Assembly: GCA_963739455.1 (NCBI GenBank)
Contig: CAVUAK010000001.1
Location: 1,856,001-1,920,000, forward strand
DNA length: 64,000 bases
Reading direction: 5' to 3'
From: an uncultured Gemmatimonadales bacterium
GTDB lineage: Bacteria > Gemmatimonadota > Gemmatimonadetes > Gemmatimonadales > GWC2-71-9
How positions within the stretch are numbered: position 1 is the first letter of the stretch; every line of letters starts with the position of its first letter. Below, in pieces: positions 9,782 through 33,800 of this stretch. The translations under genes were made by a program, and so were the position numbers. The notes below the pieces were generated by a model. It was not told the origin of the DNA, made no database searches, and saw only the letters and a list, made by a program, of their open reading frames with translations.

Positions 9782-11717
<1,936 letters not shown>

Positions 11718-11725
11718 GTCTCCAG

Positions 11726-12071
11726 CTATGGTAAGGGTCTCATGCCGGGACCCGCGGCGATCCAGCGGATGCCCGCGAATCCGTCCCTGACGTCCTGCAT
11801 TGAGCCGCGCGATGATCTGTGGTGTCATGAGGCTCAGCTCGTTGGCCCACGCGGCCGTCGTTACGCGCACCCGCAGCAGGCCATCGGGTGTGATCGACTC
11901 CGCCTCCGTCACCGCCGCGATCTGCTCACCCACAAGGCGGGGCCATTCAACGATCACGGTGGCCTGCGCCACCCGCGCCCCGATACCGGTGCGACCGAGC
12001 CAGGCTGCAACCGCGTCGCCGATCGGTGCCGGCGCGCGCTTGCGGGAACCCCTCGCTTCATCGTCGCTCAT
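11726..12071 (-). CDS. DUF721 / DciA family protein (one +1 frameshift near 11773)
   Basis: W..LVGEQIA...L.V.V...AWANEL motif; recF-DUF721-gyrB synteny; removing one G restores [18 protein letters not shown]. Confidence 0.8.
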
Positions 12072-13156
12072 GCCGACTCCCCGCCACGTGTGGCCCGGCC
12101 GCCGTTCATTTCCCACCGCGGGAGCTCGAGTTGCCGCGGCAATTCATCGCTCCGCGGCGCCGTCACGAAGAGCTGCCGTGCTCCATCGCGCGTGAGCCGC
12201 ATGGCCAGCCGCCGCTGCCGTTCCGAGTCGAGCTCCGCGAATACGTCATCCATCAGCAGCGCCGGCTCCATGCCGCGGCGCTCGCGGAGCGTGCCGAGTT
12301 CCAGCAGCTTGAGCGCGATGGCGGCGCTGCGGAGCTGGCCGGTGGAGCCGTACACCCGCAGCGGCTGGCCATCGATCGCGAGCGCGACGTCATCGCGATG
12401 GGGACCAACGGTGGTAATGCCGCGCGCCCTGTCCGTCGCGAAACTGCGAGTAAAGGCATCGTGCCATGCCCCCGGCTCGGACAACTCGGGGCGACCGGCA
12501 TACTCCAGCGTCGCGTGTCCCGATTCGTTGAGCCCCGCCAGTTCGTCGGCGAATGCCCCACCTGCGCCGGCAGCCCACGCAACACGGCGCTCCACGAGCA
12601 GCGCCCCTTCCGCCGTCAGGATCGGCTCACAGGCCCGGGCGACGTCGCCCTGCTGCTGTCGCAGCGCCGCGTTCCGGCGGGACAAGGCGCCGCGATATCG
12701 CAACAGCGCCCGCAGGTACGCCGGCTCGGCCAGTGACAGCATCCGGTCGAGAAAACGTCGCCGACCGGCGGCCGGTCCCCCAGCCAGCTCCACGTCGCCG
12801 GGAAGGAACACCACCGCGAGCCAGCGGCCGATCGCGGCGGTGAGTCGTCGCTCCTCGACGTTGTCGACGGCAATCCGCTTCTTCCGGCCCGATGCCAGGA
12901 AGGTGGCGGTCAGCGATCCCGTCGCCTCACCGTCGAACACCGCCTCGACGTGGAACCCCGTTCCGTTGAACGCGACCAGTTCCGAATCGGTCGCCCCGCG
13001 AAAGGACCGGAGCAGGACCGGGTAGTACGCCGCCTCGAGGAGATTGGTCTTTCCCTGGCCGTTCTGCCCTACAAGGGCGAACCCCCCTGACGGCACTTCC
13101 AGCTCGCCGTCCGCCAGGTTGCGGAAGCCACGGATCGCGAGGCGGGAAAGCCTCAC
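12068..13156 (-). CDS. recF: DNA replication/repair protein RecF
   Basis: [46 protein letters not shown]. Confidence 0.95.
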
Positions 13157-13192: not shown

Positions 13193-13976
13193 TCAGTGAC
13201 CTTCAAAGGCGGGCTTCCGCTTCTCGAGGAAAGCGCGGGTTCCCTCGCGCATGTCGTCGGTGGAGGAGAGCAAGCCGAACAGGTTGGCCTCGAGCAGGAG
13301 GGCATCCTCCTGGCTCATCTCGTAGCCGGCGTCAACCGCCTCGAGCACTGACCGCACGCGCGAGCGGGCCTTGCTCCATGATGCCCCGCACCAGTGCCTC
13401 GGCGTCACTGAGAAGCCGGTCGGCAGGCACGACTCGACTCACCAGCCCGATGCGCAGTGCCTCGGCGGCGTCGATGATCGCGCCGGTCAAGAGGAGCTCC
13501 AGGGCCCGCCCCTTTCCGACAATGCGCGGCAGTCGCACGGTGCCGCCGTATCCGGGAAGGAGGCCCAGTTTCACCTCCGGCTGGCCGAACTTGGCCGTAT
13601 CGCTCGCGATCCTGATGTGGCATGCCATCGCCAGCTCGCAGCCGCCGCCCAGGGCAAAACCATTGACCGCCGCCACCACCGGCTTGTTCAGTCGCTCGAA
13701 GGCGCGGAACACCAGTTGACCGGCGCGTGCCCGCGCCTTGCCGTCCATCGGGCCCTGGGTGGTGAGCTCGCTGATATCGGCACCGGCAACGAACGCCTTG
13801 GGCCCCGCCCCGGTGAGGATTACGGCGTGCACTGCAGTGTCGGCCGCCACTGCCGCGGCCGCATCACCCAGCTCCCGGATGACGGTGCCATTCAGGGCGT
13901 TCAGCTTGTCGGGACGGTTGATCGTGACGCGGGCCAGGCCATCGGCCACATCGTAGAGGAGGGTCTCGTAAGCCAT
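13193..13976 (-). CDS. Enoyl-CoA hydratase/isomerase (one +1 frameshift near 13350)
   Basis: INRPDKLNAL, AFVAGADI, ALGGGCELAMAC, FGQPEVKLG; C-terminus DMREGTRAFLEKRKPAF lies in the adjacent frame. Confidence 0.9.
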
Positions 13977-14021
13977 GCCCAAACTTAATCGCGCTGAGCG
14001 CCAGGCCGCCTATCTTTGGGC

Positions 14022-16510: not shown

Positions 16511-17972
16511 TCAGGGATTGCTGGACGGAATTCCCAGGGCGTGACAGGCGGTGCACATCTGCGGGTTCGCCTTGCGCAGTTTCTCGGCGGGGAAGTTTGG
16601 CCCATGCGGATTGAAGCGCCGCCCGCCGAACGACGAATGACACACCATGCAGTCCTTCTCACTGTGACAACTGACGCAGGTCTCGAGACCCTGTCGGGCG
16701 GCGGGCCCGTGCCCCGCCGCGAACGTGGGGTTTCCATCGTGGTAGATCGCCTGCCCGCCGATGAACCGGCCCCCTGAGGCGATGCCGTTCTGCGCGTGAC
16801 AGGTCTGGCAGAACTGGCCCGGGTTGTGGCAGTCGGAGCATGAAGCTTCACGACCATACGCTGCGACCGGGTGCCGAGTGATGAAATCGGCCGGGTGAAA
16901 TGTGCCTTGCGTGCCCGCGTTTGGGCGGTGGCATTGCAGGCATTGCTCCTGAACGTGGCATCCCGCGCATGTCTGCGGCGATGTGCCCGCCAGTTGCGCA
17001 TGGCCATCGGTGAAGTCGGTGCCGTGCGTGGCGGGGCGGGCGCGGGTCACGGTGGCACCTGCGCCGCGGCCTGGTCCCGCCACGGCGAGCACTCGCACCT
17101 GCTGGGGCGGCACCTGGTGGCACGCCTCGCAGCTGGTAGCGGTATGACACGAGCCGCATTGCTGGGTCACTTGCTGCTTCGACAGCTTGCGGCCGTGGGA
17201 GCTCGCGAACGCCGGCACCGAGTGCGATGCCGGAGCCTTCACGTCCGGCACGGCCATGGCGAGTGAACGCGCATCGGGCTGGAGCGCCTGGATCGCGGGC
17301 ACCTCGGGCGCGTTGACGTGACAGGTGATGCAGTAGTCCCGCGCGTGACAGGTCGTGCAGGAAGGTGACACGTTGTACTTCACGCCGTTCAGCACGATCG
17401 GCCCGGCGAACTTTCCATGTCCCGACTGGAAATCCGGCGAGGCATGTGAAGCAGGTGCCTTCCAGGTGGCGACTTGGGCCTCGGTGACGCCTGGTGGCAT
17501 CTCCCAGAACGGCACGTGGCAGGTGGCGCACTGCCCCGGCGGCGCGTCGAAGTGGTCGGTGCCCGCCTTGTGGCACGCCAGGCAGTTCCCGATCACGTCG
17601 CGCTGCACGTTCATCCACTTCGCGCCCGGCTCGCTGTGGCAGGACGCGCATGCCAGCCCACTGTCGCCTCGCGGCTTCGCGGCAACGACTCGCTGGTGGG
17701 CCTCGTGAGTAAACCGGAGGTTCGACGGAAGCGCCCCTGTGCGCGGTGCCCAGGTGACCGACTTCTGGATCTTGTCGTCATGGCAGGCCGCGCAGTCGGC
17801 CGGCGCGGGCCACAGCGGCTTCCGGGTCTCCGCCGCTCCTGCGTGACAAGTCTCACAGCGCACAAAGAGCGTGGCGTGCTGCGTGTGATCGAATGGAACA
17901 GCCTTCACCGCAGCGGCAGCCAGCAGGGCGCTCGCAGCGAGGGCGAGGAATCGCGAAGTGCGCGCTGGTCAT
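16511..17972 (-). CDS. Periplasmic 16-heme c-type cytochrome (+1 frameshift in the first codons)
   Basis: 16 CxxCH counted; in-frame signal peptide TSRFLALAASALLAAAAVKA lies upstream of the track ORF; ATG 17972 overlaps the porin stop and is off by 1 nt. Confidence 0.9.
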
Positions 17973-19477
17973 CGCTGGTATCCCACCGCACTCGGCATGC
18001 GCTTCACGGCGTCGGGCAAGCCGGTCCGGTCGGCGCCACCCGCGCTGAATACGTAAGTGACGTAGGCGCTGATGCGGGCCTGGTTCCAGTCGAACGCGGC
18101 CGCGTCCGGTCGCTTCCGGTTCTCGTTCACGTAGACGATGGATGCTCCGACGAGCACCTGCTGCGTGGTGCGCAGGCTCACGTCGAGCCCCGCCCAGGTG
18201 AGGTAGCTGTCATCGAATCGGTATACCAGCGGGCGCTGGCTGTACGCGCCGTAGAGGCGCAACACCATCGCGTCGAATGGATTCCAGCCGACCGAGGCGT
18301 CGCCTCCTGCGGCCACGGCACCGAAGTTCCTCTCGTACATCCAGCCGGCATCGAAGGTCCAGCGTGGCAGCGCCGTGACCGTGGCTCCGACCGCCCACAG
18401 CGTGCCCGTTGGTGCGGCGCTGCCGAGCGCCGTCTCCGCGCCGGTGTTCTCGTACTCCTGCCACTGTATGCGCCCACGCAGCTTGAGCCAGCGGGTCGCC
18501 GAGACGATCGCCGATGCCTGCACGCCGTTCCACGGCACCGGGGAGAACGCCGGCCAGATCGACCAGAGATCGAAGCGCGGCATGTACCGCTTGTAGCCCG
18601 CCGTGGCCGAGACGCGCGGGGCGGTGAAGCGCACTTCGGCATCCGCGCTGCCGACCCAGCCCTGGGCAAGGTCGTATTCCATCCAGCCAGCCACGGCCAG
18701 CCGGGGGACCGGGCGGACCACCGCGCTGCCCGAGAGGAAATCCGACATGAGGTAGTCGGTGGAGCGGTCAACCTGGCGCTGCCACTGCGCCTGCGCCTCC
18801 ACTGGGCCGCCGACAAAGCCCACGAGCACGCCACCAATGAGGTTTCGTTCACCGGGTATGAAGTCGCCGAGTGGGGCGGTGACCGGGTCGTTCACGCCTA
18901 CCGAACTGGAGCGCGCGAGTCCCAGGCCGGCATAGCCGGTGGCTTCGAGGCCGTACTTCCGGTAGCGCAATGTGGCCCGGCCGCCATCGAAGCCGGCGAA
19001 GCCGAGACGCGTTGTGATGGTTTGCCGTCCCGCGAGGACGGCGAACCAGTCGTGCTGGTAGCTGAGGTAGCCTTCCCAGAACTGGAACGCGGGCGTGGTC
19101 GCGGCGAACGCCTCGTCGCCCGCGTTGCCGTTCATGCGGAAGTTGAGGTGCGCGCTCAGTCCGGCGGTTCCCAGGCCCCATGCGGTCACGTCGGTCGTGA
19201 AGACGAGCGGGGCGTACTGCACCCTGGGGCCGGCGGCGTAGAAGTAGCACCAGTTGGGTGCGCTGCAGGCCACCGCATAGCCCGTCGCACTGTAGAGCCC
19301 GCCGCCGTCTCCCACCACCACCTCCGACCGCGGAATGCTGTCGAGCAGCCAGCCGCGAGTGGCGACGCTCTGACCGCGCAGGTCAAACGACCCGCGGAAG
19401 CCTTGTGCCGATGCCGCCGATACGCCCAGCGCGATGCCCACTGCCACCAGCGCCACAACGCGCGCGGGGTGCTTCAC
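17969..19477 (-). CDS. Putative outer-membrane beta-barrel (porin of a porin-cytochrome complex)
   Basis: Signal peptide ending ASA-Q; many alternating, aromatic-rich beta strands; last strand ISAYVTYVF; located between multiheme genes. Confidence 0.75.
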   Translation of the reverse strand: MKHPARVVALVAVGIALGVSAASAQGFRGSFDLRGQSVATRGWLLDSIPRSEVVVGDGGGLYSATGYAVACSAPNWCYFYAAGPRVQYAPLVFTTDVTAWGLGTAGLSAHLNFRMNGNAGDEAFAATTPAFQFWEGYLSYQHDWFAVLAGRQTITTRLGFAGFDGGRATLRYRKYGLEATGYAGLGLARSSSVGVNDPVTAPLGDFIPGERNLIGGVLVGFVGGPVEAQAQWQRQVDRSTDYLMSDFLSGSAVVRPVPRLAVAGWMEYDLAQGWVGSADAEVRFTAPRVSATAGYKRYMPRFDLWSIWPAFSPVPWNGVQASAIVSATRWLKLRGRIQWQEYENTGAETALGSAAPTGTLWAVGATVTALPRWTFDAGWMYERNFGAVAAGGDASVGWNPFDAMVLRLYGAYSQRPLVYRFDDSYLTWAGLDVSLRTTQQVLVGASIVYVNENRKRPDAAAFDWNQARISAYVTYVFSAGGADRTGLPDAVKRMPSAVGYQR

Positions 19478-21487
19478 CGGTCGCCCAGGAGCTGCGGACG
19501 AAACGCCGATGGCGTGGCCAGCAGGTGGCACACAGTGCACTGCGTCCCTGCCTGGTGATCCACCTTGGGATCGTGGCAGGCGAGACAGAAAGCGCGATTG
19601 GGCTCAAGCCGCGACACGGTGGTTGCCTGGTGGCAGGCGACGCAGTCCACGTGCGACTCGCGGGTGTGCGCCTCCCAGTTCGTCGTACCACGATGGCAGC
19701 CGGCACAGTCGCGCCCGGCGTCATGATGCTGGTCGTGGCACCCCTGGCACTGTGCTGCCGCGGGGGATGCGGCCAGGGTCACCGGTGTGGTGTGACAGGT
19801 GAGGCACGTGACGGCGCCGTGACCTTCATGGCTGAATGCCACCTCGCGGGCGCGATCGGGCGCCTTCGGGGCGCTCGTCTGCACGTGAATGGTCTCGCTG
19901 ACCTGCAGCTCCTGCATGCGCGATGCGTCATGGCAGGACGAGCAATCGGCCTTCGTGGGCGCCTGGTGATGGCAGATGAGGCACCCGCGCGGGGCCTTGA
20001 ACGTGACGGTGCTCGCCTTCGACTTCACGTCGTGGCAGGTGATGCAGTGGAGTTTCTTGTGGTTGCTGTGCGAGAAGGGCCGGGGCGGTGCTCCTGGTGG
20101 GACAGGGTCTGGCGGCGGATCATCGATTGGTGCGTCACCCTTCCCGTGCGGCAACGGGGGTGCGATGTCCAGCGGACCGGACGTGCGCTGCAAGGTCTTG
20201 AGCGTGTCGAAGGGCAGGGGCGGCTTGCGGCGCAGTGCCGCGCGCGCCTTCGAACTCTGGTGGCACCCGACGCAATCTGACGCGTCCACCCGTGCCGCAT
20301 GCGGTGTGTGGCAGGTCTCGCAGCGCGCCGCGATCTTGCGATGCGCTGCGCCATCATGGAAGGCCACTTTCTTCGTATCCGCATGACAGCCCGCATCGGT
20401 GCAGCTCTTGAGCGCGTCCTTCGGTTTCACGTTCTGGTGCGGATTGTGGCACATGCCGCAGGTGCCGCCGTGCGGGTCGCGCTCCGGATTGAAGTCCGCA
20501 AGCCGTTCCCGCATCGCATGGCACGAGAAACACTGTTTCGATCCCGGTCGCAAGGCACCCTTGGCGGAATCGAAGGTGGCGAGCTCCGGGACCACGCGCG
20601 TGAACCGGTGGCAGACCATGCAGTGGAGCCCCGTCTGCCCCGCCATCTTCCCCAGCCGGATGTTCACGTCTTCAGTAAGGTGACAACCCTGCTGGGAGCA
20701 GGTGCTGTCCACCGGCGCAAAGCGGTGAGCCGAGCGCGCGTGACAGGTGAGGCATTCCACCTTTCCGCGGAGCGCCGAGCTGTCCGACTCCAGGTGCGTG
20801 CGGTGGCCGGCGGTCTTCGAAATGGCCTGCCATGTCGCCTTTGCGGCGCCCAGCTTGTGGCATTTCTCGCAGACGTCCCTGGGCACCTTGCCATGCTCGG
20901 GGATTGTCGAGTCGCGGACACCCGACATCCACAGCGTCATCTTCACCGCTTCCTTGCGGAAGTCGAAGGCGTGGCAGGTGTGACAGTTCAGCGTGTCGTG
21001 CTTGCCCTCGAGCTTGTTGACCAGCGTGTAGTCGCCGCTGTCGGGGCGCTCCACCACCTGGCCACTCGGCACGAAGACGTGGCACCCGTTGCACATGCGC
21101 GGGTCGTTCATCATGAAGTCGTACGACTTCATGCCGGCCGCGACGACGCCGAGCACCGCCAGCAGCACCACAGCGCCCAGGGCCGCCTTCACCGCCGTGC
21201 TTCGGGTCGCGAGGTACTTCACCACCGCCTTGATGTGCCCCCGCAGCCACCAGAGCGCGGCGATCCCCAGCGATGGCGGCGAGGATGGCGCCGCCCCACA
21301 TCACCCACGGGGGCTTCTGGAAGATCCACTGGATGATCGGGGTGACGGTGTCCGGCAGCAGCGTGTGGTCGACGGTGGAGTCGAGCACCTCGGGGTGGCC
21401 GGGCACCCGGATGGTGGCAGTGTCCTGCCTGCCAACGGAAGCGGCCGCCACGTAGGCGGCCGCACCGTGAACCAGCCGAGTCAGCAC
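19474..21487 (-). CDS. Membrane-anchored 20-heme cytochrome with a NapC/NirT-like N-terminal module (+1 frameshift near 21265)
   Basis: 18 CxxCH + 2 CX4CH; two hydrophobic segments before heme 1; Pro-rich linker between hemes 11 and 12; start inferred by joining frames. Confidence 0.85.
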
Positions 21488-21512
21488 GGGACGCCCGCGC
21501 TCCACTGGCGGC

Positions 21513-23142
21513 TTACCGGATCGCGGTCTGCCGTGCACCGGCGGGAGGGGTGTACCGGATGCCAGGCGTGGAGAGCGCATTCCGGACCGCAGCTTCCTGG
21601 GCCGGGGAAAGCGCGTTGAGCAGGCCATACCGCGCGCGTACCGCGTCGATCGACCCGGCGATCAGTCCGCGGTAGAGCACGGGGTTGTGGATGCCCTTGG
21701 AGCCATCGTTGTGCGGATAGAGTTCCTCGCCCAGCATCCGCGCGTTGAACAACGCACCCTCGGCCACCGACAGGCTGTTGTCCTTCGCATCGGCGGTGCA
21801 GCAGAAGTACGCGGAATCGGTTGCGGGCACGGTCGTGCCCGGATGCTGGGCAAGAACCGCAGGCAGCAGGCCGCCATCGGTAGTCTCGAGCACGGTATTG
21901 TGGTTCGTGTCGATCCACAGGATGTCTACCAGCACCTTGATGCTGGCCCGCGTGCTGTTGAAGAGATTGGCTGCGTTGTTGGCATTGCCATGACAGGCGG
22001 TGCAACCAGTCCAGAATCGCGCAGTTGCCGTGTATTCGCAACTTCCCGCGGTCGGGAGGCCGTTCGCGTCCTTGCACGGGTTGGGCGAGAACAGGTGACC
22101 GACCGAGGTGAACTCCGTGCCCGTGGAGAGGTCGGTGGTCGTGAAGGTGACCACGTGGCACCCGGCGCACAGGCGCGTGTTTGCCGTCACATGCGACGTC
22201 TGCACCGGGTTGTCCGGGTCATAGACGAACCCGGGAGGCGGCCAGCCGGCGGCCTCGCCGAAGTACACCGCGCCCTGGGACGCGTGGGCACCGCGCGAGT
22301 TGATCGTGAAGGACGGCGTCGCCGACGCGCTCTTGGTATGGCAACTCGAACAGAGGTTGGCTGTCCACGTCCGGATTGTCGATCGGGGCACGGAGCTGCC
22401 CGGCGTTTGTCTTGGCGTGCGGATCGTGACAGACAGCGCAGGTGAGCGGGAATTGCGTGGTCTTCCCGATGTAGTTGGTAGGCGCGTTGCCGCTCAGCTT
22501 GGCCATCGCCTGGGCGCCGCTATGGCAGGAGACGCCGCACGAGGTCGGCGTCTCAGCCGGCCCGCCGGGTTCATTCCGCAGGTTCGCATGCGCCGATTGC
22601 GACCATTGCTCCGCGAACGGGTGATGGGCCCCCGAATGGCAGGCGACACAGGTCTGTCCCGGCGGGGTTACCAGCCCGCTCGCGAGCGGGATGTTGGTCG
22701 AGTTCGGGTTGGTGACGTGGGTGAGGCCAGGACCGTGGCAGCTTTCGCACTGAACATTGTGATAGACGGAATCGGGCACGGCATTCCAGCCACCGGGAAT
22801 CCCAGCGGCGAAATAGGTGTTCCCGTTCTGCGATACGGTATGACAGCCAAAGCACGTCGGCAGTGCGACCCCCGGCGGCAGGGACGCGAGCGTTGCGTAT
22901 GCGTCGGCGTGCCTGGTGCCGGACCATTCCGTCTGGTTGTTGACGTGGCAGTTGCCGCAGGTCGTCTGGTTGGTGTGGACGTCATACAGCCCCAGGAATC
23001 CGGCCACGCTGTCGGGCGCCGGGTTGAAGCGGGGCTGGTCCACCTCGACGATCTCGGTATTGGTGCAGGCGCTCGCGGTGAACGCGCCCGCCAGGACGAC
23101 GAGCGCGAGCAGGGTCCAGTGCGGACGAAGGTTCGTGCGCAT
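21513..23142 (-). CDS. Multiheme (9-heme) cytochrome c lipoprotein (+1 frameshift near 22365)
   Basis: Lipobox FTASA-C; 8 CxxCH + 1 CX3CH across two frames; VQCESCHGPG c554-like motif. Confidence 0.85.
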
Positions 23143-23386
23143 GCGCGTCTCGGGAAGGCGAGGAATGACCGGCAGCAGTCTGCTACACATTACCGCCCGG
23201 TAGTTGTACGGACAAGAGAGCCCTGATGATCATTCCGTGAAGTTATCTTGTTCATTCCCTTGGAGTTATGGCAAGCGCCTTCGTGATGATCTCTTCACTC
23301 GTATCGACCCCATTCCGGCGCCAGTGCGGCTCCAGTATTCTCCTGTCGCTCGTTCAGATGCCACTCACTCCGAGGCAACGCCCCTC

Positions 23387-24197
23387 GTGACAACGACATG
23401 CCCTGCCTGCGGCGCCGCAGCCAGCGGGAAGTTCTGCAGCTCATGCGGCGCAGCGTTGTCACCCCGCAACTGCGGTCAATGCGGCCGGCCGGTCGCCCCA
23501 GGCGCGCAGTTCTGCCGGGATTGCGGCGCCGCAGTCGGGAGCCAGTCCCGCCAGCGTGGGTGGTGGGGATCGAGGTGGCCGGACCGCCTGGATTGCCGCA
23601 GCCGGACTCGGTGCGGCAGTGCTCGCGGTCGTCATCGCCTTTCTCGTCAAGAACGAGCGCCGCCCCGTGCCTTCGGCTGGGCCGATGGCTGCGGCGCTAT
23701 CGGCTGAAGCACAGACTTCGGCTGGACCGGAGGGAACGCCTCCAGACATCAGCAGCATGTCTCCGAAGGAGCGGTACGACCGGCTCTACAACCGGGTCAT
23801 GCGCGCTGCTGAATCGGGTGACCAGGCCACCGTGGAGCGCTTCACTCCCATGACGGTCATGGCCTTTCAGCAGCTCGACAGCATCGACGCCGATGCGCGC
23901 TTCCACATGGCGATGTTGCTCTTGCACACCGGGCAGGTTCCCGGCGCACAGGCGGAAGCCGACAGTATCCTCAAGTTCTCGCCCGGCCACCTCTTCGGGT
24001 ACATGATCCGGGGAGCCGTCGCCCGCTGGAACAAGGACGCGGGGGCCCTCAAGAAGGCTCAGGACGAGTTCCTGGTGCGCTACGACACGGAGATGAAGGC
24101 CAAGCGGCCCGAGTATGGGGAGCATGAGCGGGCGGTGAGTGACTTCCGGGCCTCAGCGCTGGGGCAGGCTCCTCCGCCCCCGGCCGCCGGTTCCTGA
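23387..24197 (+). CDS. Double zinc ribbon + TM + TPR-like protein (+1 frameshift near 23560)
   Basis: CPAC, CSSC, CGQC, CRDC; then TM WIAAAGLGAAVLAVVIAFLV and a helical C-terminus in the next frame. Confidence 0.7.
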
Positions 24198-24281: not shown

Positions 24282-24704
24282 ATGAAGCCGGGTACCAAGT
24301 TCCTTATCGGCGCGCTGCTGATTGTGGGCAGCGTCGGTTTCCTCATCGCCCAAGGGGTGAAGGAAACCGGGGTGTATTTCCTGACGCCCACCGAGCTCGC
24401 TGCAAAGACCACCTCGGATCCCACGTTCTTCGACGTCGGCCTCAAGCTGGGTGCCAAGGTGGTTCCGGGTTCGATCAAGCGGGATGCAGCAACCCAGCAG
24501 GTCGATTTCCTGGTGAGTGACGGTGGCCGGCAGTACCCGGTGTCCTACCGCGGTATCGTGCCGGACACATTCACCGACGCGAATGACATCGAGGTCATCG
24601 TCGAGGGGCGCCTCGGGCGCGATGGTGTCTTCCACGCCACAGAAGTGTTCGCCAAGTGTGGTTCCCGCTACGAGGCCGAACTCGACAAGGCTGCCAAGGC
24701 CTGA
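24282..24704 (+). CDS. ccmE: Cytochrome c maturation heme chaperone CcmE, CxxxY variant
   Basis: N-terminal TM, YFLTPTE, VVPGSI, YRGIVPDTF, VIVEG, AKCGSRY; GGAGG RBS. Confidence 0.92.
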   Translation: MKPGTKFLIGALLIVGSVGFLIAQGVKETGVYFLTPTELAAKTTSDPTFFDVGLKLGAKVVPGSIKRDAATQQVDFLVSDGGRQYPVSYRGIVPDTFTDANDIEVIVEGRLGRDGVFHATEVFAKCGSRYEAELDKAAKA

Positions 24705-24720
24705 TCGCACGGCTCCTGAC

Positions 24721-26775
24721 ATGACACTGCTGGGCAACTTCGCGCTTTGGGCGGCGCTCCTCTTCGGCATCTGGGGCGCCGTTCTCGCCTTCTCGAACCG
24801 CTGGCAGGGCCGCCCCGAGATCGCGCTCTCGGTGACGCGCTCGGTCTACGCCGTGTTCGCCTCGTGCGTCGTGGCGTCGGTCGCGCTGTGGAAGGGCATC
24901 ATCGCCCACGACTTCAACATCGAGTACGTCTGGGCCTATACATCGCGGAACCTCCCGTCCGGATACCTCTTCTCCGCGTTCTGGGCCGGACAGAAGGGTT
25001 CGCTGCTGTTCTGGGCAGTCGTGCTCTCACTGTTCGCGACGCTGGCCCAGGCGATGACACCCCGACGCTACGCCCCGCTCATGCCGTACGTGGCGGGAGT
25101 CACTTCGTCTGTCACCGTCTTCTTCATTGCCGTCATGCTCTTCTCCGGGGCCAATCCGTTCGAGCGGCTTCCGTTCACGCCGGCAGATGGCCGAGGGCTG
25201 AATCCGCAGCTGCAGAACCCCGGCATGATGATTCACCCTCCCATGCTGTACCTCGGCTACATCAGCATCACCATTCCCTTCGCGTTCGCCATCGCCGCAT
25301 TGCTGTCCCGGAAGCTCGATACCGGATGGATCCACGCGATGCGGCGCTGGATGCTGGTGTCGTGGCTCTTCCTGGGTGTGGGGATCACCCTCGGCATGTG
25401 GTGGGCGTACGTGGAGCTGGGCTGGGGCGGCTACTGGGCATGGGACCCGGTGGAGAACGCCAGCCTGCTCCCCTGGCTTACCATGACTGCGTTCCTGCAC
25501 TCGGTCATGATCCAGGAAAAGCGCGGCATGCTGAAGCGGTGGAACCTGTCGCTGGTGGTGGGCACGTTCCTGCTGAGCATCTTCGGGACCTTCATTACGC
25601 GCTCCGGCGTCATTGCCAGCGTGCACAGCTTCACGCAGTCGAACGTCGGCTACTACTTCCTGGCGTTCCTCTTCATCATCGCGGTGGTTTCCTACACCCT
25701 GCTCTACACCCGGTGGCCGCTTCTCGAGGCCGACGTGGAGCTGGAGTCGATGGTCAGCCGCGAGGCGGCATTCCTCTTCAACAACCTGCTGTTCGTCGGC
25801 ATCGCATTTTCGGTCCTGTGGGGTACCCTCTTTCCGATCCTTTCTGAGGCAGTGCGGGGCACCAAGATCACGGTGGGGCCGCCCTTCTTCAACAAGGTGA
25901 ATATTCCGCTTGGGCTCCTGCTGCTCGCGCTCACCGGCATCGGCCCCCTCATCGCGTGGCGGAAGGCCTCGATCCAGAATCTCCAGCGACAGTTCGCCTT
26001 CCCGGTCGGCGCCGGCGTGGTTGTGACCGCGGTGCTCATGTCCCTTGGGGTGCGCGAACTTGCCCCACTCATGACCTGGGGCCTTGCCGGGTTCGTAGCG
26101 GGGACAATTGCGCAGGAGTTCTGGCGCGGCACCCGTGCCCGCATCCGCATGCACGGTGAGACGGTGCCGGTCGCGCTGGGCCGGCTGGTGGCCCGGAACC
26201 GCCGCCGCTACGGTGGTTACATCGTGCACCTCGCCATGCTCGTGTACTTCGTGGCGTTTGCCGGCATGGCGTTCAAGGTGCAGCGCGAAGCGACGCTCAA
26301 GCCGGGTGAGTCGGTGGAACTGCGAAGCCCGTTCGGCCATACCTACACCTTTACGCACGTGGGCATCTCGCAGTTCAAGCAGCTCAATCGCTATGTGTCC
26401 GCGGCCACCGTGGAGGTGGAGCGTGATGGAAAGCCCGACGGGCGGATTGTGTCGGAGAAGCGCCAGCACTTCACCGTCAATGAGCTGGGCACCGAGGAAG
26501 CGTCGTTCGAGCCGTCCACCGAAGTCGGTATCCGGAGTGGCCTGCAGGAGGACATCTACATCGTCTTTGCCGGGGCGGTGAACGGGACCGAGGAGGCGGT
26601 GTACCGCTTCAACATCAATCCCCTGGTCTGGTGGGTGTGGGCAGGCGGGTTCATCCTGGCGTTCGGTGGGCTCATTACGATGTGGCCGGGCGGCGGAACG
26701 CCGGTGGCGTCACGTCGCAATGCGCAGCCGGGCTATGGCGTCGAGCTCGCGACAGCGCCCGTGGGCGTGGAGTAG
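24721..26775 (+). CDS. ccmF: Heme lyase CcmF
   Basis: HPPMLYLGY, WAYVELGWGGYWAWDPVENAS, TFITRSG..SVHSF, NPLVWWVWAGG. Confidence 0.96.
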   Translation: MTLLGNFALWAALLFGIWGAVLAFSNRWQGRPEIALSVTRSVYAVFASCVVASVALWKGIIAHDFNIEYVWAYTSRNLPSGYLFSAFWAGQKGSLLFWAVVLSLFATLAQAMTPRRYAPLMPYVAGVTSSVTVFFIAVMLFSGANPFERLPFTPADGRGLNPQLQNPGMMIHPPMLYLGYISITIPFAFAIAALLSRKLDTGWIHAMRRWMLVSWLFLGVGITLGMWWAYVELGWGGYWAWDPVENASLLPWLTMTAFLHSVMIQEKRGMLKRWNLSLVVGTFLLSIFGTFITRSGVIASVHSFTQSNVGYYFLAFLFIIAVVSYTLLYTRWPLLEADVELESMVSREAAFLFNNLLFVGIAFSVLWGTLFPILSEAVRGTKITVGPPFFNKVNIPLGLLLLALTGIGPLIAWRKASIQNLQRQFAFPVGAGVVVTAVLMSLGVRELAPLMTWGLAGFVAGTIAQEFWRGTRARIRMHGETVPVALGRLVARNRRRYGGYIVHLAMLVYFVAFAGMAFKVQREATLKPGESVELRSPFGHTYTFTHVGISQFKQLNRYVSAATVEVERDGKPDGRIVSEKRQHFTVNELGTEEASFEPSTEVGIRSGLQEDIYIVFAGAVNGTEEAVYRFNINPLVWWVWAGGFILAFGGLITMWPGGGTPVASRRNAQPGYGVELATAPVGVE

Positions 26776-26778
26776 CTG

Positions 26779-27348
26779 ATGCGTCGTCGCGCGTTCCTGT
26801 CGTTCGAGCAGGATACCACCCGCGCTCCAGTTGCCCCCAGCCCGCGCGCCGGCCAGGGCGATGTGGGTGAGCTGTTCAATCCCGACGTCGCGGGCCGTCC
26901 CCGCGCGCCCACCCTGGAAAGCGACAACGACGTCGTTGTCCGCAATACCGAGCTCAAGCTGCGCTGCAACTGCGGATGCACGCTCGACATCTTTACCTGC
27001 CGTACCACCGACTTCACCTGCACCTATTCGCCCGCGCTGCATCGCGAAGTCGTGGCCCTGTTCGCCGGGGGCAAGACTTCCGAGGGCGTGATCGCCGCCT
27101 TCGTTGACAAGTATGGCGAGAAGATCCTCATGGCCCCGAAGCCGGAGGGGTTCAACCTCGCGGGGTATGTGGTGCCCGGCGCCGCCATCCTGACGGTGGG
27201 TGGCATCGTGGCCTGGATCATCCGGCGGCGCATGCAGCGATCGGCGGATCAGGCGCTCGACCAGGCGCTGGCGCCGGTGCCGGTCACGGCAGTGACGGAT
27301 GCCGAGATGGAGCGCCTGAAGCGTGAATTGGCGGAGATGGAAAAATGA
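26779..27348 (+). CDS. ccmH: CcmH-like protein with an atypical Cys motif
   Basis: LRCNCGC...C...C, then FVDKYGEKILMAP followed by a TM, as in CcmH/NrfF. Confidence 0.75.
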   Translation: MRRRAFLSFEQDTTRAPVAPSPRAGQGDVGELFNPDVAGRPRAPTLESDNDVVVRNTELKLRCNCGCTLDIFTCRTTDFTCTYSPALHREVVALFAGGKTSEGVIAAFVDKYGEKILMAPKPEGFNLAGYVVPGAAILTVGGIVAWIIRRRMQRSADQALDQALAPVPVTAVTDAEMERLKRELAEMEK

Positions 27349-27857
27349 TCTGGCTCGAGGCGGTGGCGGCGGCACTCGTTGGGCTTGCATTGCTCCTGGT
27401 CGTGCTTGGGCCGCTCATCTCCCGCGAGCCTGTGCCGGCGATCGTCGACGACGAGCCGACGGACCTCGAGGAAACGCCCAAGGGCATCGCGCTGTCGGCA
27501 CTCAAGGAGATCGAGTTCGACCAGGCGACCGGAAAGCTGTCGGACGAGGACTACGCAATGCTCAAGGGGAAGTACACGGCGCAGGCACTGCAGGCGCTAC
27601 GGGCCGAGGAAGGGATGCCGGTTGCGGCCAGCGCCACGGGCATCGAGGCCGTCATTGCGGCCCGGGCCGTGGCGATCCGGGCAGAGGGACTTTCCGGGCC
27701 GGCCTGTCCACACTGTGGACCGCGACCGGAGCAGGATGCCGTGTTCTGTTCGACCTGCGGCGCAGGGATGGGCATGCGAACCTGCAACGATTGCAGTGCG
27801 ACCCTGCCACCAGGCAGCCGGTTCTGTGACCAATGCGGAAAGCGCGTGGCCGCCTGA
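27345..27857 (+). CDS. CcmI-like N-terminus fused to a double zinc ribbon
   Basis: TM ending GPL; LKEIEFDQATGKLSDEDY; CPHC, CSTC, CNDC, CDQC. Confidence 0.7.
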   Translation: MIWLEAVAAALVGLALLLVVLGPLISREPVPAIVDDEPTDLEETPKGIALSALKEIEFDQATGKLSDEDYAMLKGKYTAQALQALRAEEGMPVAASATGIEAVIAARAVAIRAEGLSGPACPHCGPRPEQDAVFCSTCGAGMGMRTCNDCSATLPPGSRFCDQCGKRVAA

Positions 27858-27864
27858 AGCTGCG

Positions 27865-30800
27865 TCAGGCCCGAGCTGCCCGCTTTCGCGGGACCGTGGT
27901 CATGCCTGTTGCGCGCTCACCAAGCACAACCTCGACTCGGTGCACTTCTCCGTCATCCACGAGCGGAATGGCGGCAGGAGGACAGGCCACGCCGTTGTGC
28001 AGGGCCGCGGCAACACCGCGGCAACGATGCTGTGGGTTGACGACGCTGATCTCATAGCGTGTACGTCCGAAGGTCCAGGTAATTGCATAGGCTGGCCACG
28101 TCGCGGGAATGCAGGGATCCAGTTCGAACGTTGCGCCGTGGCGCTTTAGGCCGAGTATGCTCTCCAGTCCGGCGCGATACATCCATCCGGCAGACCCTGT
28201 GTACCAGGTCCAGCCACCGCGCCCGATGTGGGCCGGGTGGGCGTAGACGTCACCGGCGGTGACATAGGGCTCCACCTTGTAGCGCTCCACGTCCGCGGCC
28301 GTGCGGGTGTGGTTGACGGGGTTGAGCATGTGAAAGAGCTCCATCGCCTCGTCACCGTTTCCCAGCCGCGCCACAGCCATGATCGTCCAGATCGCCGCAT
28401 GGGTGTACTGCCCACCATTCTCCCGCATGCCCGGCGGGTATCCCTTGATGTAGCCCGGGTCCTGCGCTGACTGGTCGAAGGGTGGCGTCAGCAGCAGGAC
28501 CGCGCGCGCGGCGCGACGGACGAGGTGTGTCCTGACGGCATCCATTGCTCGCTCCGCTCGCGCTGGCGCCGCGGCACCGGACAACACCGCCCACGTCTGC
28601 GCGATCGAGTCGATCTTGCATTCCTCGTTCTGCGCCGAACCAAGGGGCGATCCGTCGTCGTAGTACGCGCGCCGGTACCAGTCACCATCCCAGGCAAGTT
28701 CCAGCATGGTGGCGAGGCGAGACGCCTCGCCCTGGTATCGTGCGGCACGTGCCTGGTCGCCTGCCCGATCACAGAGCGGCGCCATCTGCTTGAGCACCGC
28801 ATACAGGAACCAGCCCAGCCAGACGCTCTCGCCCCGGCCCAGGTGGCCGACGCGGTTCATGCCGTCATTCCAGTCGCCGCTGCCGATCAGCGGAAGGCCA
28901 TGCGAACCCGACGTGAGGCTTCGCTCCACGGCCCGCACGCAGTGATCGAGCAGCGAGGCGGATTCCGCCGACGCGCCCGGCTGCATGTACGTCTCCGTCT
29001 CTCCCGGGGCGAGCGGCGCGCCCTCCAGGAACGGGACGACTTCCTCGAGGATTCCGGTGTCGCCCGTCGCGTCCACGTAGTGCGCCACGGCGTACGGCAA
29101 CCAGAGCAGGTCGTCCGAGCAACGCGTGCGGGTGCCGCGACCTGACGGTTCGTGCCACCAGTGCTGCACATCGCCCTCAACAAACTGGCGACCCGCCGCG
29201 CGGACGATATGCTCGCGAAGCAAGCCCGGCTGCGCGAAGCTCAGGGCCATCGCGTCCTGCAGCTGGTCACGGAAGCCGAACGCTCCACCCGGCTGGTAGA
29301 GGGCGGATCGTGCCCACACGCGGCAGCTCAGCACCTGGTACAGCAACCACCGGTTCATGAGCAGGTCGAATGAATCGTCGGGCGTACGCACCTGAATGGT
29401 GCCCAGCGCCCGGTCCCACGACGAGGTCACACGCGTGAGCGCCGCGTCGGCCGCGTCGACACTGCGATGACGGGCGAGCAACTCGCGCACATGGTTGTGA
29501 TCGCGGCCCTGCCCGAGGGTGAAGGCCACGCGTCGCGTCTCGCCCGGCGCGAGGTCGATGCGGACATGCAGTGCCGCACACGGATCGAGGCCGGGACCGA
29601 CGGCGCCGGACAGTGCGTGCCGCGTCATGGCAGCAGGCATGGCGAGCGACCCGTTGCGCCCGAGGAACGAGAACCGGTCGGCCGAGACCGAGTGCGGCGC
29701 CTCGCTCACGCTGGCGAATGCCACGCGGGTGGCGAACTCCTGGTTGTACGGGTTGGTGGCGAGGATGGCGGCCGACTCCCGGTCATACTCCGTCACCACG
29801 TGCAGGTGCTCGCCTGATCGTGGCGGGCCCAGCCGCCATTCGGCGTAGCCGAAGGCGCTGAGCCGCCGACGGCGGTCGGTGCGGTTTGTGACCGTCAGGA
29901 GCGAGAACTTTACCGGATCCTCAGCGTCCACGAACACGGCCAGTTCCTGCTCGATACCGTGTGACGCATGCGTGAAGCGGGATACGCCGGCCGTGTGCTG
30001 CACCACATAGCGACCGCTCTCGAGGGTCCGCGTCACAGGACCGGGCGTCGGAGCCCAGGCGTCGCCGGTGTCCTCATCGCGGAGATAGACGGCCTCGCCG
30101 GTTGGATCGCTCACGGGATCGTTCGCAAACGGGGTGAGCCGGTTCTCCCGGCTGTTGACCGCCCAGGTGTACGCCGAGCCGGAAGCTGAGACGACGGTGC
30201 CGAAATCCGGGTTGGCAATGACGTTCACCCAGGGGAGCGGCGTTTCCTGTTCACCGTCGAGGACGATGGCATAGGCCCGCCCATTGTCCGTGAAGCCTCC
30301 GGATCCATTGCCGAACGTCAGTGCCGGTGACGCGATCGCCACGCCGTCGCGTTCCGGCACTGGTACGGGTGGCGGCGCTGGCAGTTCCCGCTGCCACTGC
30401 GGCTCCGCATACGGCCGGTCCAGCTGGTTGGCGAGTTCGCCTCGCTCGCCACTGAGGATCGCGCGCGACGCCGCCGCGAGGAGGACGCGCTCGGCGTCGC
30501 TCATCCGGTCGCCACGCAGCAGGAACACCCCGCCCGGACGATGCTTCCACGCGCCCCACGGACCGGTGTCGAGCAGCGCCGCGAGTTGCACGTGCATCTC
30601 ATCCAGGTAGCTCACCGGATGCTCATTCAGGATGACGACGTCCGCGCTCAACCCCTTGAGGCGCCAGTACTCCTGTGCCTGCAGTACCTGCCGCACCAGC
30701 GGGATGTCATTCTCTTCGACGACGCGCACGAGCAGGATGGGGAGGTCGCCCGAGATGCCATGGGCCCACAGGCCCGGCTGGCCGAGCACATTGCGCGCGA

Positions 30801-33800
30801 GGACCTCCGGCGCCGCGCGAAGCGAGGCGTCGATATGCAGCACCCGCGATGCAAGCCGCTCGTAGAGCATGGCCTCGTCACTGGAGATGCCCATGTGTCG
30901 CAGCGCGCTCTGCGCCTGGGTAAAGGCCAGCGCGAACGTGCGGGCCGAGGCGCTTGGGTCATGGTACTTGTGCGCCATCGCGAGTGCCGCGTCGCGACTC
31001 GAAGCCACACCGGTGGCGAATGACATGCGCACAAAGCCGCCCGGGAGCAGGCGGATGCGCTGCCGCAGGCTGACGATCGGGTCCAGGACGGCCCCGGTGG
31101 TGCCTGACAATGCGCGCCCATCCAGCGCCGTCGGGTTCTCGGGGCCGTGTCCGCGGCCGAGGAACCGGAGGCGATCGGTTTCCCACTCGACGGGCCCCTG
31201 CATCCGCCCCTCGACGCTCAGCACATGCACCGCCCACATGCCCGCCTCGTCCGGCGCGCGCGGACGCCGGGTGCACACCAGTGCCGCGCTTTCCGGCAGG
31301 TACTCTGTCTCGATGAACAGCTTCCCGAAAGCCGGATGGGCCAGGTCGTCGGCCAGCGACGCGAGCGCCATCTCGCCATAGCTCGTGATCTCGAGCTCGC
31401 GCGGACGGTCACTCAGGTTCGTGATGGCGAGGCGCCGAACCTCGACGTCGTCTTCCGTCGAGACCGCGATGTCGAGCTGCGTCGCGATACCGTCGTCACG
31501 CCGCCGGAATACGGCACGCTCCGCCTGGAACGTGACCACATACTCCTCCGGCTCCCGGGCCGTGGGATGGTACGTCGCCGACCACACCGAGCCGCTTCGC
31601 ACATCGCGGAGATACAGGAACTGGCTGCCGAGGTCGCGCGTGGCGTCCTCGCGATGGCGGGTCACGGCGCGCCCACGACAGAGGCTGGCGCCGCCACCGG
31701 CGTTCGTGACCACGGTGACGTAGGAACCGTTCGACAGGAATTGCGCATGCGGATAGCGGGTGTGTGGCGAGCGGAAGCGCCGCACCGCCACGGCGGGCAC
31801 CGCGGCTGCCACCCGGGTCGCTTCGGCAGGGCGTGGCTGGGTGATCGGGGCGTGGCGGGGGACGCGCTCCTGCAGGAGAAGTGCGGTCGCCTGAACCCGG
31901 GCGTCGGCGTGGAAGCGATGCACCATCACGTCATCGAGGAGGGCATTCGCCAGTGCCACCAGGGTCATGCCCTGATGATGCGCAAGGAACGACCGCACCA
32001 CGGTTCCCCTGGGCGGCGAGCCCGGTGTCAACGACGCGACGCTCTCGTCGTCAGGAGCCGTCGTGTGATGCGTATAGTCGATCGATTCGTAGAAGCCATA
32101 CGACCCCTCGGCTCCCTCGCGAGCAAGGCGGCGGAAATTCTGCGCGGCACGGGTGGGATCCACCATTGCGGCGAGCGCCGTGGCGTAGGGTGCCACGACC
32201 AGTTCATCACCCAGGCCGCGCTTCAACCCGAGGCCAGGAACGCCGAAGGCCTTGTACTGGTAGTTGCCGTGGCGATCGACTGCGTTGAAGCCCGACTCCG
32301 ATATGCCCCAGGGCACACCGCGAAGCCGTCCATACTCGATTTGCCGGCGCACGGCGCTCCGGCATGACTGGTCCAGGAGAGTCTCGGGATAGCTCCGCAT
32401 CACCAGCTGCGGCATCAGGTACTCGAAGAGGGTGGCACTCCACGACAGCAGCGTGGAGGCCCCATCCACGCTGGTCAGCAGTCGCCCCAGGTGGAACCAG
32501 TGGCTGTCGGGCACATCACCCTTGGCGACCGCGACGAAGCTCGCGAGACGAGCCTCGGACGCGAGCAGGTCATAGAAGGACGGATCAAGGCGGCCCGGAC
32601 CCTCGGCGTCCGCGAGACGGAAGCCGATCGCGAAGATCTGCCGCTGACGATCATGAAGGAAGCGGAAGTTCATGCCGTCCAGGAACGCCTGTGCGCGCGC
32701 CGCCAGCGCCGCGAGGCGCTTCCCGGCGTCGGCGGACGGCGCCGGCGCCGTCAGGCCGGCGGCGAGAGCCCGCGCCCAGTAGACCGCCTCTATCCGGTCG
32801 GGTTCCGGTGGCTCGTCCGACGAGAAGACGTCGATCGCTTCCTCCAGTTCCGGGAGGAACCCGCGCGCCCGCTCGAGCTTCTCCGCCGGATCCTCGGCGC
32901 CCTCGACCGTGTTGCGGAGCGCCGTCAGCACGGCAACGAGGAGCGCCCGGTCCGAGGGCGACGTGCCGCGTGACCCCGAGAGCTGGCTCATGGAGCGGAG
33001 CGCCACCTCTGCCGTGTCGAGCAGCCCGCCACAGACCACCGAGGGCGCCTGGGCGTTCGCAGCCAGGTGGTGAAGGCCTTCGGCGGCGGCGATGAGCGCG
33101 CCAGCAAGATTGCCGCTGTCGACCGTCGACACGTACCGCGGCGCGAGCGGAGCCAGCGTGCTGGTGTCGTACCAGTTGAGCAGGTGGCCTTCGTGTCGCT
33201 CCAGCCCTTCCATCGTTCCCAGGAGCGCCTCGAGCTTCTCGAGCAGTTCCGCGGTGCCGATGTAGCCGAGGTCGTGGGCGGCCAGTGTGGACAGCAGCCC
33301 CATCGCGATGTTGGTGGGCGACGTCCGATGGGCCACAACCGGCGCGGGCACCTCCTGGAAATTATCGGGCGGGAGGCCGTGATCGGTGGCGCCCATGAAC
33401 GCCTCGAAGTAGCGCCAGGTCTTTCGGGCGACGATGCGCAGCAGGAGGCGGTCCTCGTCGCCCAGTCGCTGGCGAGCGGCTCGCACCGGCCGACTCAGCC
33501 ACGCCGCCACGATGGGGGCCACGATCCACAACGCCAGGATGGGCGCCGCGACCGGGAGTGCGCTGGGCCGCGCGCCGCCAATCAGTACGAGGACCACCAG
33601 GGCAATCAGCGGGCTCGCCGCCATCTCGCCGATGAAGAGCAGCACGTCGCTCCTGGGGCTGAGGCCCGCGGCGCGGGCTGCCGCCGCTGCCGCCGTCTCC
33701 CATTCGAGCAGCCGCCGCTGGGTGAATGCGAGTCGCATCAGCGTCAACGCGATGGCATGCACCATCTCGTAGGCGTGATACGCCAGGAAGGTCAGGTGCA

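Follow-up and report, generated by a model that had tools for sequence, protein, structure and literature searches.

Electron conduits across the outer membrane are known from Shewanella (MtrCAB with CymA) and from the Geobacter-type porin-cytochrome (Pcc) systems, and outward extracellular electron transfer (EET) in Geobacter starts from the quinol oxidases ImcH, CbcL and CbcBA (bioRxiv 2023.05.03.539133). In Gram-positive thermophiles, OcwA and OmhA serve as cell-surface EET cytochromes (PMC6703420, PMC9250108). Here we describe an operon in a 64,000-nucleotide stretch of DNA (the window; assembly GCA_963739455.1, contig CAVUAK010000001.1, positions 1,856,001 to 1,920,000) from an uncultured Gemmatimonadales bacterium. 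Its four genes, which occupy 23142 to 16511 of the minus strand, encode in order the nonaheme lipoprotein Lip9, the 20-heme protein Mem20, the predicted beta-barrel Por22 and the 16-heme cytochrome Per16, and they very probably form a real, conserved and lineage-wide trans-outer-membrane wire.

Gemmatimonadota account for about 2% of soil 16S sequences on average (PMC10581226). For this phylum, one Gemmatimonadetes MtrCAB is listed in PMC8805035, one CbcL and two ImcH homologues were counted in PMC6295460, and PMC11316326 gives three MtrABC operons among 495 metagenome-assembled genomes, together with widely annotated Cyc2 and DFE_461-465 homologues, annotations which might include genes of the operon described here. 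The available main text of PMC4245776, on Pcc systems, makes no mention of Gemmatimonads; in the available portions of two phylum surveys, PMC9426454 mentions neither multiheme cytochromes nor EET and PMC10581226 does not mention EET, while those of PMC11495043, PMC9671151 and PMC11492766 hold nothing specific to the operon. A search of the full-text literature, with figures, supplements and subscription journals outside its scope, likewise returned no description of it.

Four genes carry 45 heme motifs

An initial annotation, made from the letters alone, had proposed four genes, the last three overlapping, with 9, 20 and 16 hemes and a barrel of about 500 amino acids. A six-frame scan of the window confirmed this layout, with a barrel of 502 residues. 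The 45 heme motifs comprise 42 CXXCH, one CX3CH and two CX4CH, the CXXCH motifs spanning 22959 to 16555 on the minus strand; Lip9 has eight plus one, Mem20 18 plus two, Por22 none and Per16 16. Stop and start codons overlap by 4 bp between Mem20 and Por22 (19477-19474) and between Por22 and Per16 (17972-17969), and the end of Lip9 at 21513 is followed by a short gap before Mem20. Among the 344 CXXCH matches in the six frames of the whole host genome, the operon is the sole cluster of more than eight and by far the largest. Outside the operon, a single large multiheme gene was found in that genome, a stand-alone c554-like gene with eight hemes (G000 C1:2274029-2275678).

Compared with an intact relative (L002, 75-87% identical), the operon has three 1-bp frame breaks, at about 22361 in Lip9, at 21257-21267 in Mem20 and at 17963 in the signal peptide of Per16. 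Since gyrB (9782-12116, minus strand) is also split by a frameshift at about 11190, as is an enoyl-CoA hydratase-like gene (13196-13982, minus strand) at about 13355, both being intact in relatives, the three breaks are most likely assembly errors.

A barrel predicted to hold a seven-heme wire

The initial annotation had taken 17969-19477 for a large outer-membrane barrel and called for its strands to be predicted. The AlphaFold2 model of Por22, built with 105 homologues (predicted local distance difference test, pLDDT, 86; predicted template modelling score 0.79), agrees: it has 22 strands and no plug, the strands being counted from a DSSP string in which the first two long ones are broken into parts. 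Cys71 and Cys77, in the first outer loop, are invariant. No family gives Por22 a name. When 63 members, a subset of the homologue matches, were scanned with Pfam and NCBIfam, only one rose above a cut-off (Porin_4), and no MtrB-named family was among the matches at E ≤ 0.05. A Por22 profile found no PDB sequence at E ≤ 10, and fold matches are to generic large barrels only, the best being FimD (Z 18.1), with MtrB at 15.7, and are uninformative on family. All 30 atlas neighbours were without a common Pfam family, and the clusters of ten distant barrels, when looked up, carried no name that would help.

Per16 lies directly after the barrel in 75 of the 75 loci with enough flank (gene-order counts, here and below, come from the best 80 of 362 loci, in which kin are not independent). 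It consists of a five-heme N-domain, diheme repeats and seven C-terminal hemes predicted to sit in the barrel lumen. Insertion of the 16-heme protein into the porin, raised in the initial annotation as a matter for modelling, is indeed what complex prediction returned, with a score of 0.84 against 0.00 for the best of three controls; in calibration, 116 of 157 solved complexes attained this mark, as did 2 of 215 mismatched pairs. The prediction runs share at least 64% of their contacts, with a partner pLDDT of at least 74. Per16 residues in contact span 230-453, so that its C-terminal half is predicted to lie inside the barrel, and the modelled contacts of Por22 fall on every other strand residue, the pattern expected of a side that faces the lumen. 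The lowest-error pairs of the model join Per16 360-446 to Por22 loops 188-203, 242-243 and 304-316, long loops that, from the topology, would lie outside the cell; the conserved loop 299-315 is among the surest predicted contacts, and invariant loop residues touch the predicted end of the wire. The score may partly echo the solved MtrAB structure and is no proof.

Independent support for the complex comes from the conservation of Per16. In 13 of 13 aligned relatives, chosen to span 12-18 hemes (three with 12, five with 14, four with 16 and one with 18), hemes 1-5 and 10-16 are kept and only the middle repeats vary, though where two repeats are alike, such an alignment may not tell which one has been lost. 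When short proteins consisting of a relative of the C-terminal part were sought, the matches were mostly fragments and included no named Pcc protein.

A lipoprotein resembling Gram-positive surface cytochromes

All 57 full-length members of the Lip9 family have a lipobox cysteine, for which they were selected, and in 51 the +2 residue is Thr, not Asp, which by the E. coli sorting rule is in keeping with the outward mechanism proposed below. A model of an intact relative (AlphaFold2, pLDDT 84) contains the nine-heme, c554+NrfA-type scaffold with a C-terminal helix bundle found in OcwA and OmhA, and these two were also the top matches in a profile search (E 2e-19 and 2e-15, respectively) and with Foldseek (5e-6 and 2.5e-4). 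Structural alignment with VIA-align again placed OcwA first (Z 15.8, root-mean-square deviation 3.1 over 328 residues, 24% identity), ahead of OmhA (14.7), NrfA (13.2) and ONR (12.5), and the likeness to OcwA and OmhA extends along the whole protein. An OmcB-family cluster among the language-model neighbours (0.92) is a lead only. In the nitrite reductases NrfA and ONR the active-site heme is bound by CXXCK; none of the nine sites of Lip9 is of this type, all motifs ending in His. With eight conserved extra histidines for nine hemes, one or two open hemes are probable. In OcwA and OmhA, conserved distal His-His motifs stand at hemes 2 and 5 (PMC9250108); at the first of these, matched by sequence alignment, Lip9 has His146 in 49 of 57 members and His147 in 20.

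Lip9 travels with the barrel. Of 41 genomes with the barrel 38 also have Lip9, in some cases as tandem duplicates, and of 20 genomes lacking the barrel none does. Where there is enough flank, it is present in all 44 core and all seven extended loci.

Mem20 and the inner-membrane slot

Mem20 of the intact relative L002 has two hydrophobic segments ahead of heme 1. The protein is laid out as an NrfH-like domain, an 11-heme N-terminal part, a 78-residue Pro-rich gap between hemes 11 and 12, and a nine-heme C-terminal part. For the NrfH-like domain the best of four PDB matches at E ≤ 1 is NrfH itself (2J7A_C, E 7e-4), and TIGR03153 reached E 1.3e-7, below its cut-off, in one of two members tested. 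The domain aligned (hhalign, 96.8%) with the NapC-type domain of a 22-heme protein of relatives, a type for which PF03264 was above cut-off in two of two proteins tested. The nine hemes at the C-terminal end of Mem20 are similar to c7/PpcA polymers, and in L053 this part is a separate protein with a signal-like N-terminus, which suggests a tethered shuttle.

The slot upstream of the barrel is filled by Mem20 in 51 of 63 loci with enough flank and by a NapC-22-heme module in ten, with neither in two. In those ten loci a longer set encodes Rieske, cytochrome b, 9-heme, NapC-type 22-heme and 11-heme proteins and an FdhC/CbcL-like cytochrome b, and an ImcH-like gene occupies the slot in one relative genome; both likenesses were assigned by comparing architecture with that in bioRxiv 2023.05.03.539133. 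At L094 (G039 C2:63000-82500), two Lip9 genes, the barrel and Per16, without Mem20, have hyp maturation genes on one side and a group 1 uptake [NiFe]-hydrogenase operon on the other, an arrangement with which H2-driven EET would be possible.

Distribution, regulation and neighbouring genes

The barrel has matches in 41 of 61 close genomes, in 81 of 114 genomes of the host's family and in 112 of 251 Gemmatimonadota genomes, 109 of these strong (about 43%) and three weak. Named barrel relatives are Gemmatimonadales, and by them so is the host, from a lineage that the initial annotation had considered no established model for EET. Strong copies in bins labelled Vicinamibacterales (four copies) and Acidimicrobiaceae look like binning errors; other genomes of the phylum of the Vicinamibacterales bin gave strong matches in 0 of 150 and weak ones in four.

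Upstream of Lip9 a spaced inverted repeat marks a candidate regulator site. The pattern, chosen after a four-sequence alignment had been seen, recurs in 21 of 52 upstream regions, compared with a mean of 2.6 and a maximum of 6 after shuffling. Scans for sigma-70 promoters and terminators gave nothing above chance, and FNR-like and CRP-like boxes occurred in none and one of the 52 regions, respectively. The divergent ccm genes are likely to mature the operon's cytochromes. Also divergent (23389-24197, plus strand) is a gene for a double zinc-ribbon, membrane-anchored helical protein of no family, with an apparent frameshift at about 23550; kept beside the operon in some relatives (L058), it is possibly a maturation factor. 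The flanks of L007, L016 and L058, read from translations, hold universal stress, Hsp20, CBS-domain and NirK-like copper proteins, feoB and a molybdopterin reductase, a neighbourhood of low-oxygen type. Downstream in three loci (L014:16193-21467, L032:15482-18993, L054:14653-20700) is an unrelated second cluster of 23-heme and 19-20-heme repeat cytochromes followed by a barrel-like gene, which resembles PCC3. Further along the window (27865-36438, minus strand) is a gene whose 2857-residue product resembles a cyclic beta-1,2-glucan synthase (NdvB-like).

Table 1. Features of the operon and its immediate surroundings, in window coordinates.
Feature	Position	Strand	Basis
Lip9, nonaheme lipoprotein, ~540 aa, lipobox Cys at residue 26; predicted surface terminal cytochrome	21513..23142	-	motif scan, lipobox, AlphaFold2, fold matches
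Mem20, 20-heme protein, ~670 aa, start approximate	19474..21487	-	motif scan, NrfH profile match, hydrophobic segments
Por22, predicted outer-membrane beta-barrel, 502 aa, no plug domain	17969..19477	-	AlphaFold2 model, family scans
Per16, 16-heme exported cytochrome	16511..17972	-	motif scan, alignment, complex prediction
Candidate regulator site, core of spaced inverted repeat ~60 bp upstream of Lip9 start	23200..23209		pattern enrichment
ccmE, ccmF, ccmH, ccmI-like gene, divergent to operon	24282..27857	+	Pfam and NCBIfam matches

Proposed direction and function of the conduit

The mechanism that we favour, with some reserve, is an outward one in full, leading from the menaquinone pool to external acceptors by way of Lip9 at the surface. 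What the sequences themselves establish are the genes, their heme motifs, the conservation of gene order and the distribution. The host genome has futalosine-type menaquinone genes. Menaquinol would be oxidised by the membrane-anchored NrfH-like domain of Mem20, and electrons would cross the periplasm through the 11-heme chain and the flexibly tethered, nine-heme c7-type arm. Next, according to structure prediction, the seven C-terminal hemes of Per16 thread the 22-strand barrel to its outer loops, hemes 6-9 forming a variable spacer. On the outer face, Lip9 would reduce Fe(III) or Mn oxides, humic quinones, electrodes or partner cells. Such a conduit could serve an otherwise aerobic heterotroph as an electron outlet at low oxygen, and the outward direction appears favoured by slot modules of the kinds on which Geobacter relies for outward EET.

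Several observations weigh against this outward route. With aa3- and cbb3-type oxidases and alternative complex III (labels read from translations), the host looks aerobic; moreover, conduits are reversible, and direction is therefore not readable from sequence. At the inner membrane, the NrfH-like match of Mem20 is weak and below all family cut-offs, the window's own Mem20 has no NapC/NirT Pfam match, and no invariant Lys (columns 118-133) or Asp was found in the helix that follows the position of the NrfH methionine. The NrfH methionine is Met in 21 of 51 family members, Phe in 29, which include the window's clade, and Arg in one; in that clade the Met of CXXCHXM is replaced, with an insertion of about 14 residues. 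CymA lacks the methionine likewise (bioRxiv 2022.01.10.475773). The initial annotation's claim that a single operon encodes every layer from quinone to surface stands in so far as a likely quinone-facing module is present; quinol oxidation we infer only, because the window's NrfH-like domain is without that methionine, and the surface location is a predicted one.

At the outer end, the second His-His motif of OcwA is missing in the 57 Lip9 members, which mostly have Arg-Gly instead. Second Lip9 copies sit on contigs other than the barrel's in G044 and G046, as do both copies in G035, and the only secretin found in the host genome belongs to a pilMNOPQ-like operon (PilQ-like), no type II secretion route being found. 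The surface terminus of the initial annotation is weakened by the fold: by its model, Lip9 is a member of the NrfA/HAO/c554 superfamily, within which the surface EET branch is nearest to it.

Lip9 could then be a periplasmic enzyme for nitrite, NO, hydroxylamine or sulfur compounds, fed by the NrfH-like domain as in NrfHA, with the wire ending at Per16. We consider this unlikely. The NrfA/ONR fold does follow close behind OcwA (Z 13.2 and 12.5), but the nine sites include no CXXCK, and the distal-pocket positions vary (His147 in 20 of 57), unlike a fixed catalytic site, even if one or two hemes are probably open and OcwA is itself a slow nitrite reducer (PMC6703420). Lip9 is encoded directly before the NrfH-like domain, as such an enzyme might be, yet none of 61 genomes has it in the absence of the barrel, and in L097 and L094 the barrel gene comes right after it (two copies in L094, with no NrfH-like gene in the 19.5 kb examined). 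That no type II secretion secretin was found in the host is in keeping with a periplasmic site.

The conduit might also run inward, in the manner of MtoAB and PioAB, with Fe(II), reduced humics or partner cells as electron donors and either the quinone pool or the photosynthetic chain as the recipient, although we regard this as improbable. The host has a photosynthesis cluster (G000 C3:216000-230000) with pufL, pufM, a tetraheme pufC, a puhA-like gene and bch genes. Matches to puf occur in six of 61 genomes, all barrel-positive, and G006 has both on one contig; but five of the six belong to one genus, and 35 of 41 barrel-positive genomes are without a puf match, which rules out a link to phototrophy as the conduit's general function. 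RuBisCO was not found in the 84%-complete host genome, and neither were petB, NiFe hydrogenase or nosZ. Rieske/cytochrome b genes in the extended clusters, and the NapC-type proteins of Fe(II)-oxidiser clusters (bioRxiv 2022.01.10.475773), would suit an inward route, while MtoAB/PioAB and PCC4 are without an outer cytochrome (PMC5566968) and Lip9 is both retained and reductase-like. The photosynthesis cluster is also present in four of 11 other genomes of the genus, and the family to which this genus belongs is apparently distinct from that of the cultured phototrophs (family labels unnamed).

A heme capacitor for short anoxia, or a relic decaying in this strain, is very improbable: 45 hemes per set, three frame breaks and an uneven distribution (81 of 114 genomes of the family) would fit, but the breaks also hit gyrB, and the invariant barrel loop residues that touch the predicted wire end would be needless for storage alone.

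More boldly, and as a doubtful proposition, Gemmatimonadota may be a major overlooked electroactive group whose conduit ends in a Gram-positive-type surface reductase; in this phototrophic lineage it might be an overflow valve, passing light-driven electrons from the menaquinone pool to minerals or humics and so keeping the type II reaction centre of an aerobic anoxygenic phototroph at work without oxygen. The presence of conduit and photosynthesis cluster in one genome makes light-coupled EET testable. If about 43% of the sampled genomes carry a conduit, a common and mostly uncultured phylum would join the redox cycling of iron, manganese and humics. Three parts lend themselves to tests: the barrel family, which has no name, with its defined seven-heme wire; the counterpart of OcwA in a two-membrane cell; and the fusion of quinol oxidase and periplasmic arm.

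Comparison with known conduits

As in Shewanella MtrCAB with CymA (PDB 6R2Q), and in MtoAB and PioAB, the operon combines a cytochrome wire in a barrel (here predicted), a lipoprotein cytochrome and a putative quinol oxidase of NapC/NirT type. It differs from MtrCAB in having 22 rather than 28 strands (predicted), 16 rather than 10 hemes and a lipoprotein that is not of the MtrC fold. No MtrB or MtrA family matched above cut-off, TIGR03508 being far below its cut-off or absent, and the initial annotation was right that the heme counts, 16 and nine, depart from the decaheme MtrA/MtrC pattern. With PCC3 and PCC4 the operon has in common a single cluster across both membranes and very high heme counts (PMC5566968). 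Unlike PCC3, there is no five-helix HX13H membrane protein between 16511 and 23142, and the barrel is smaller than most PCC3 porins; where the extracellular cytochrome of PCC3 has a low-complexity repeat and a median of 34 hemes (PMC5566968), Lip9 has nine and no such repeat. Mtr-type or PCC3 identity is ruled out by these strand and heme numbers, by the family scans and by the lack of a five-helix protein with two HX13H motifs.

An inner-membrane part in the same operon, which the initial annotation had presented as unusual, proves not to be so: PCC3 and PCC4 clusters include such a component (PMC5566968), a NapC/NirT protein is encoded in the mto cluster of Sideroxydans (bioRxiv 2022.01.10.475773), and six of eight group-2 clusters in PMC13264449 have one too. 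One-operon conduits were already known, and the present system is a variant of an existing conduit type.

The nearest of these types is the Geobacter-type Pcc (OmbB-OmaB-OmcB, including Ignavibacterium IALB_1837-1839). Its porins have 18-22 strands (PMC4245776), a range that takes in the 22 predicted for Por22. Pcc periplasmic partners carry 5-14 hemes, with Ignavibacterium IALB_1838 at the upper end (PMC4245776), compared with 16 in Per16 and 12-18 in its family; the outer-membrane lipoprotein cytochromes of Pcc carry 1-15, and Lip9 has a lipobox, nine hemes and a predicted surface site. Of seven weak barrel homologues, the six examined (E 1e-5 to 5e-11) are each followed immediately by a cytochrome that has 5, 12 or 14 hemes and a match to the Per16 profile (E 8e-8 to 6e-39), after which come further multiheme genes; four of these six genomes are from the phylum of the Vicinamibacterales-labelled bin and two from other Gemmatimonadota classes. 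Because distant barrels adjoin cytochromes of the Per16 profile, the barrel-wire pair is likely to form a remote branch within a broad Pcc-like superfamily. The link to OmbB, OmaB and OmcB is an indirect one, through these distant pairs and the OmcB-family neighbour of Lip9. An outgroup of three loci (L107-L109, in G380, G404 and G392) has a distant barrel, a 5-heme cytochrome, a 5- or 10-heme lipoprotein and large MtrC/OmcA-like decaheme proteins, a hybrid of Pcc and Mtr parts.

Besides the 16 hemes of Per16, the operon differs from Pcc in its OcwA/OmhA-type lipoprotein and its 20-heme NrfH-c7 fusion. Like NrfH, NapC and ImcH, Mem20 appears to have a membrane helix ahead of heme 1 and a similar spacing of its first three hemes; unlike them, it is fused to 17 more hemes. 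Lip9 shares its scaffold with OcwA of Thermincola potens (6I5B) and OmhA of Carboxydothermus ferrireducens (6QVM), but is instead a lipoprotein of a two-membrane cell, encoded together with a barrel.

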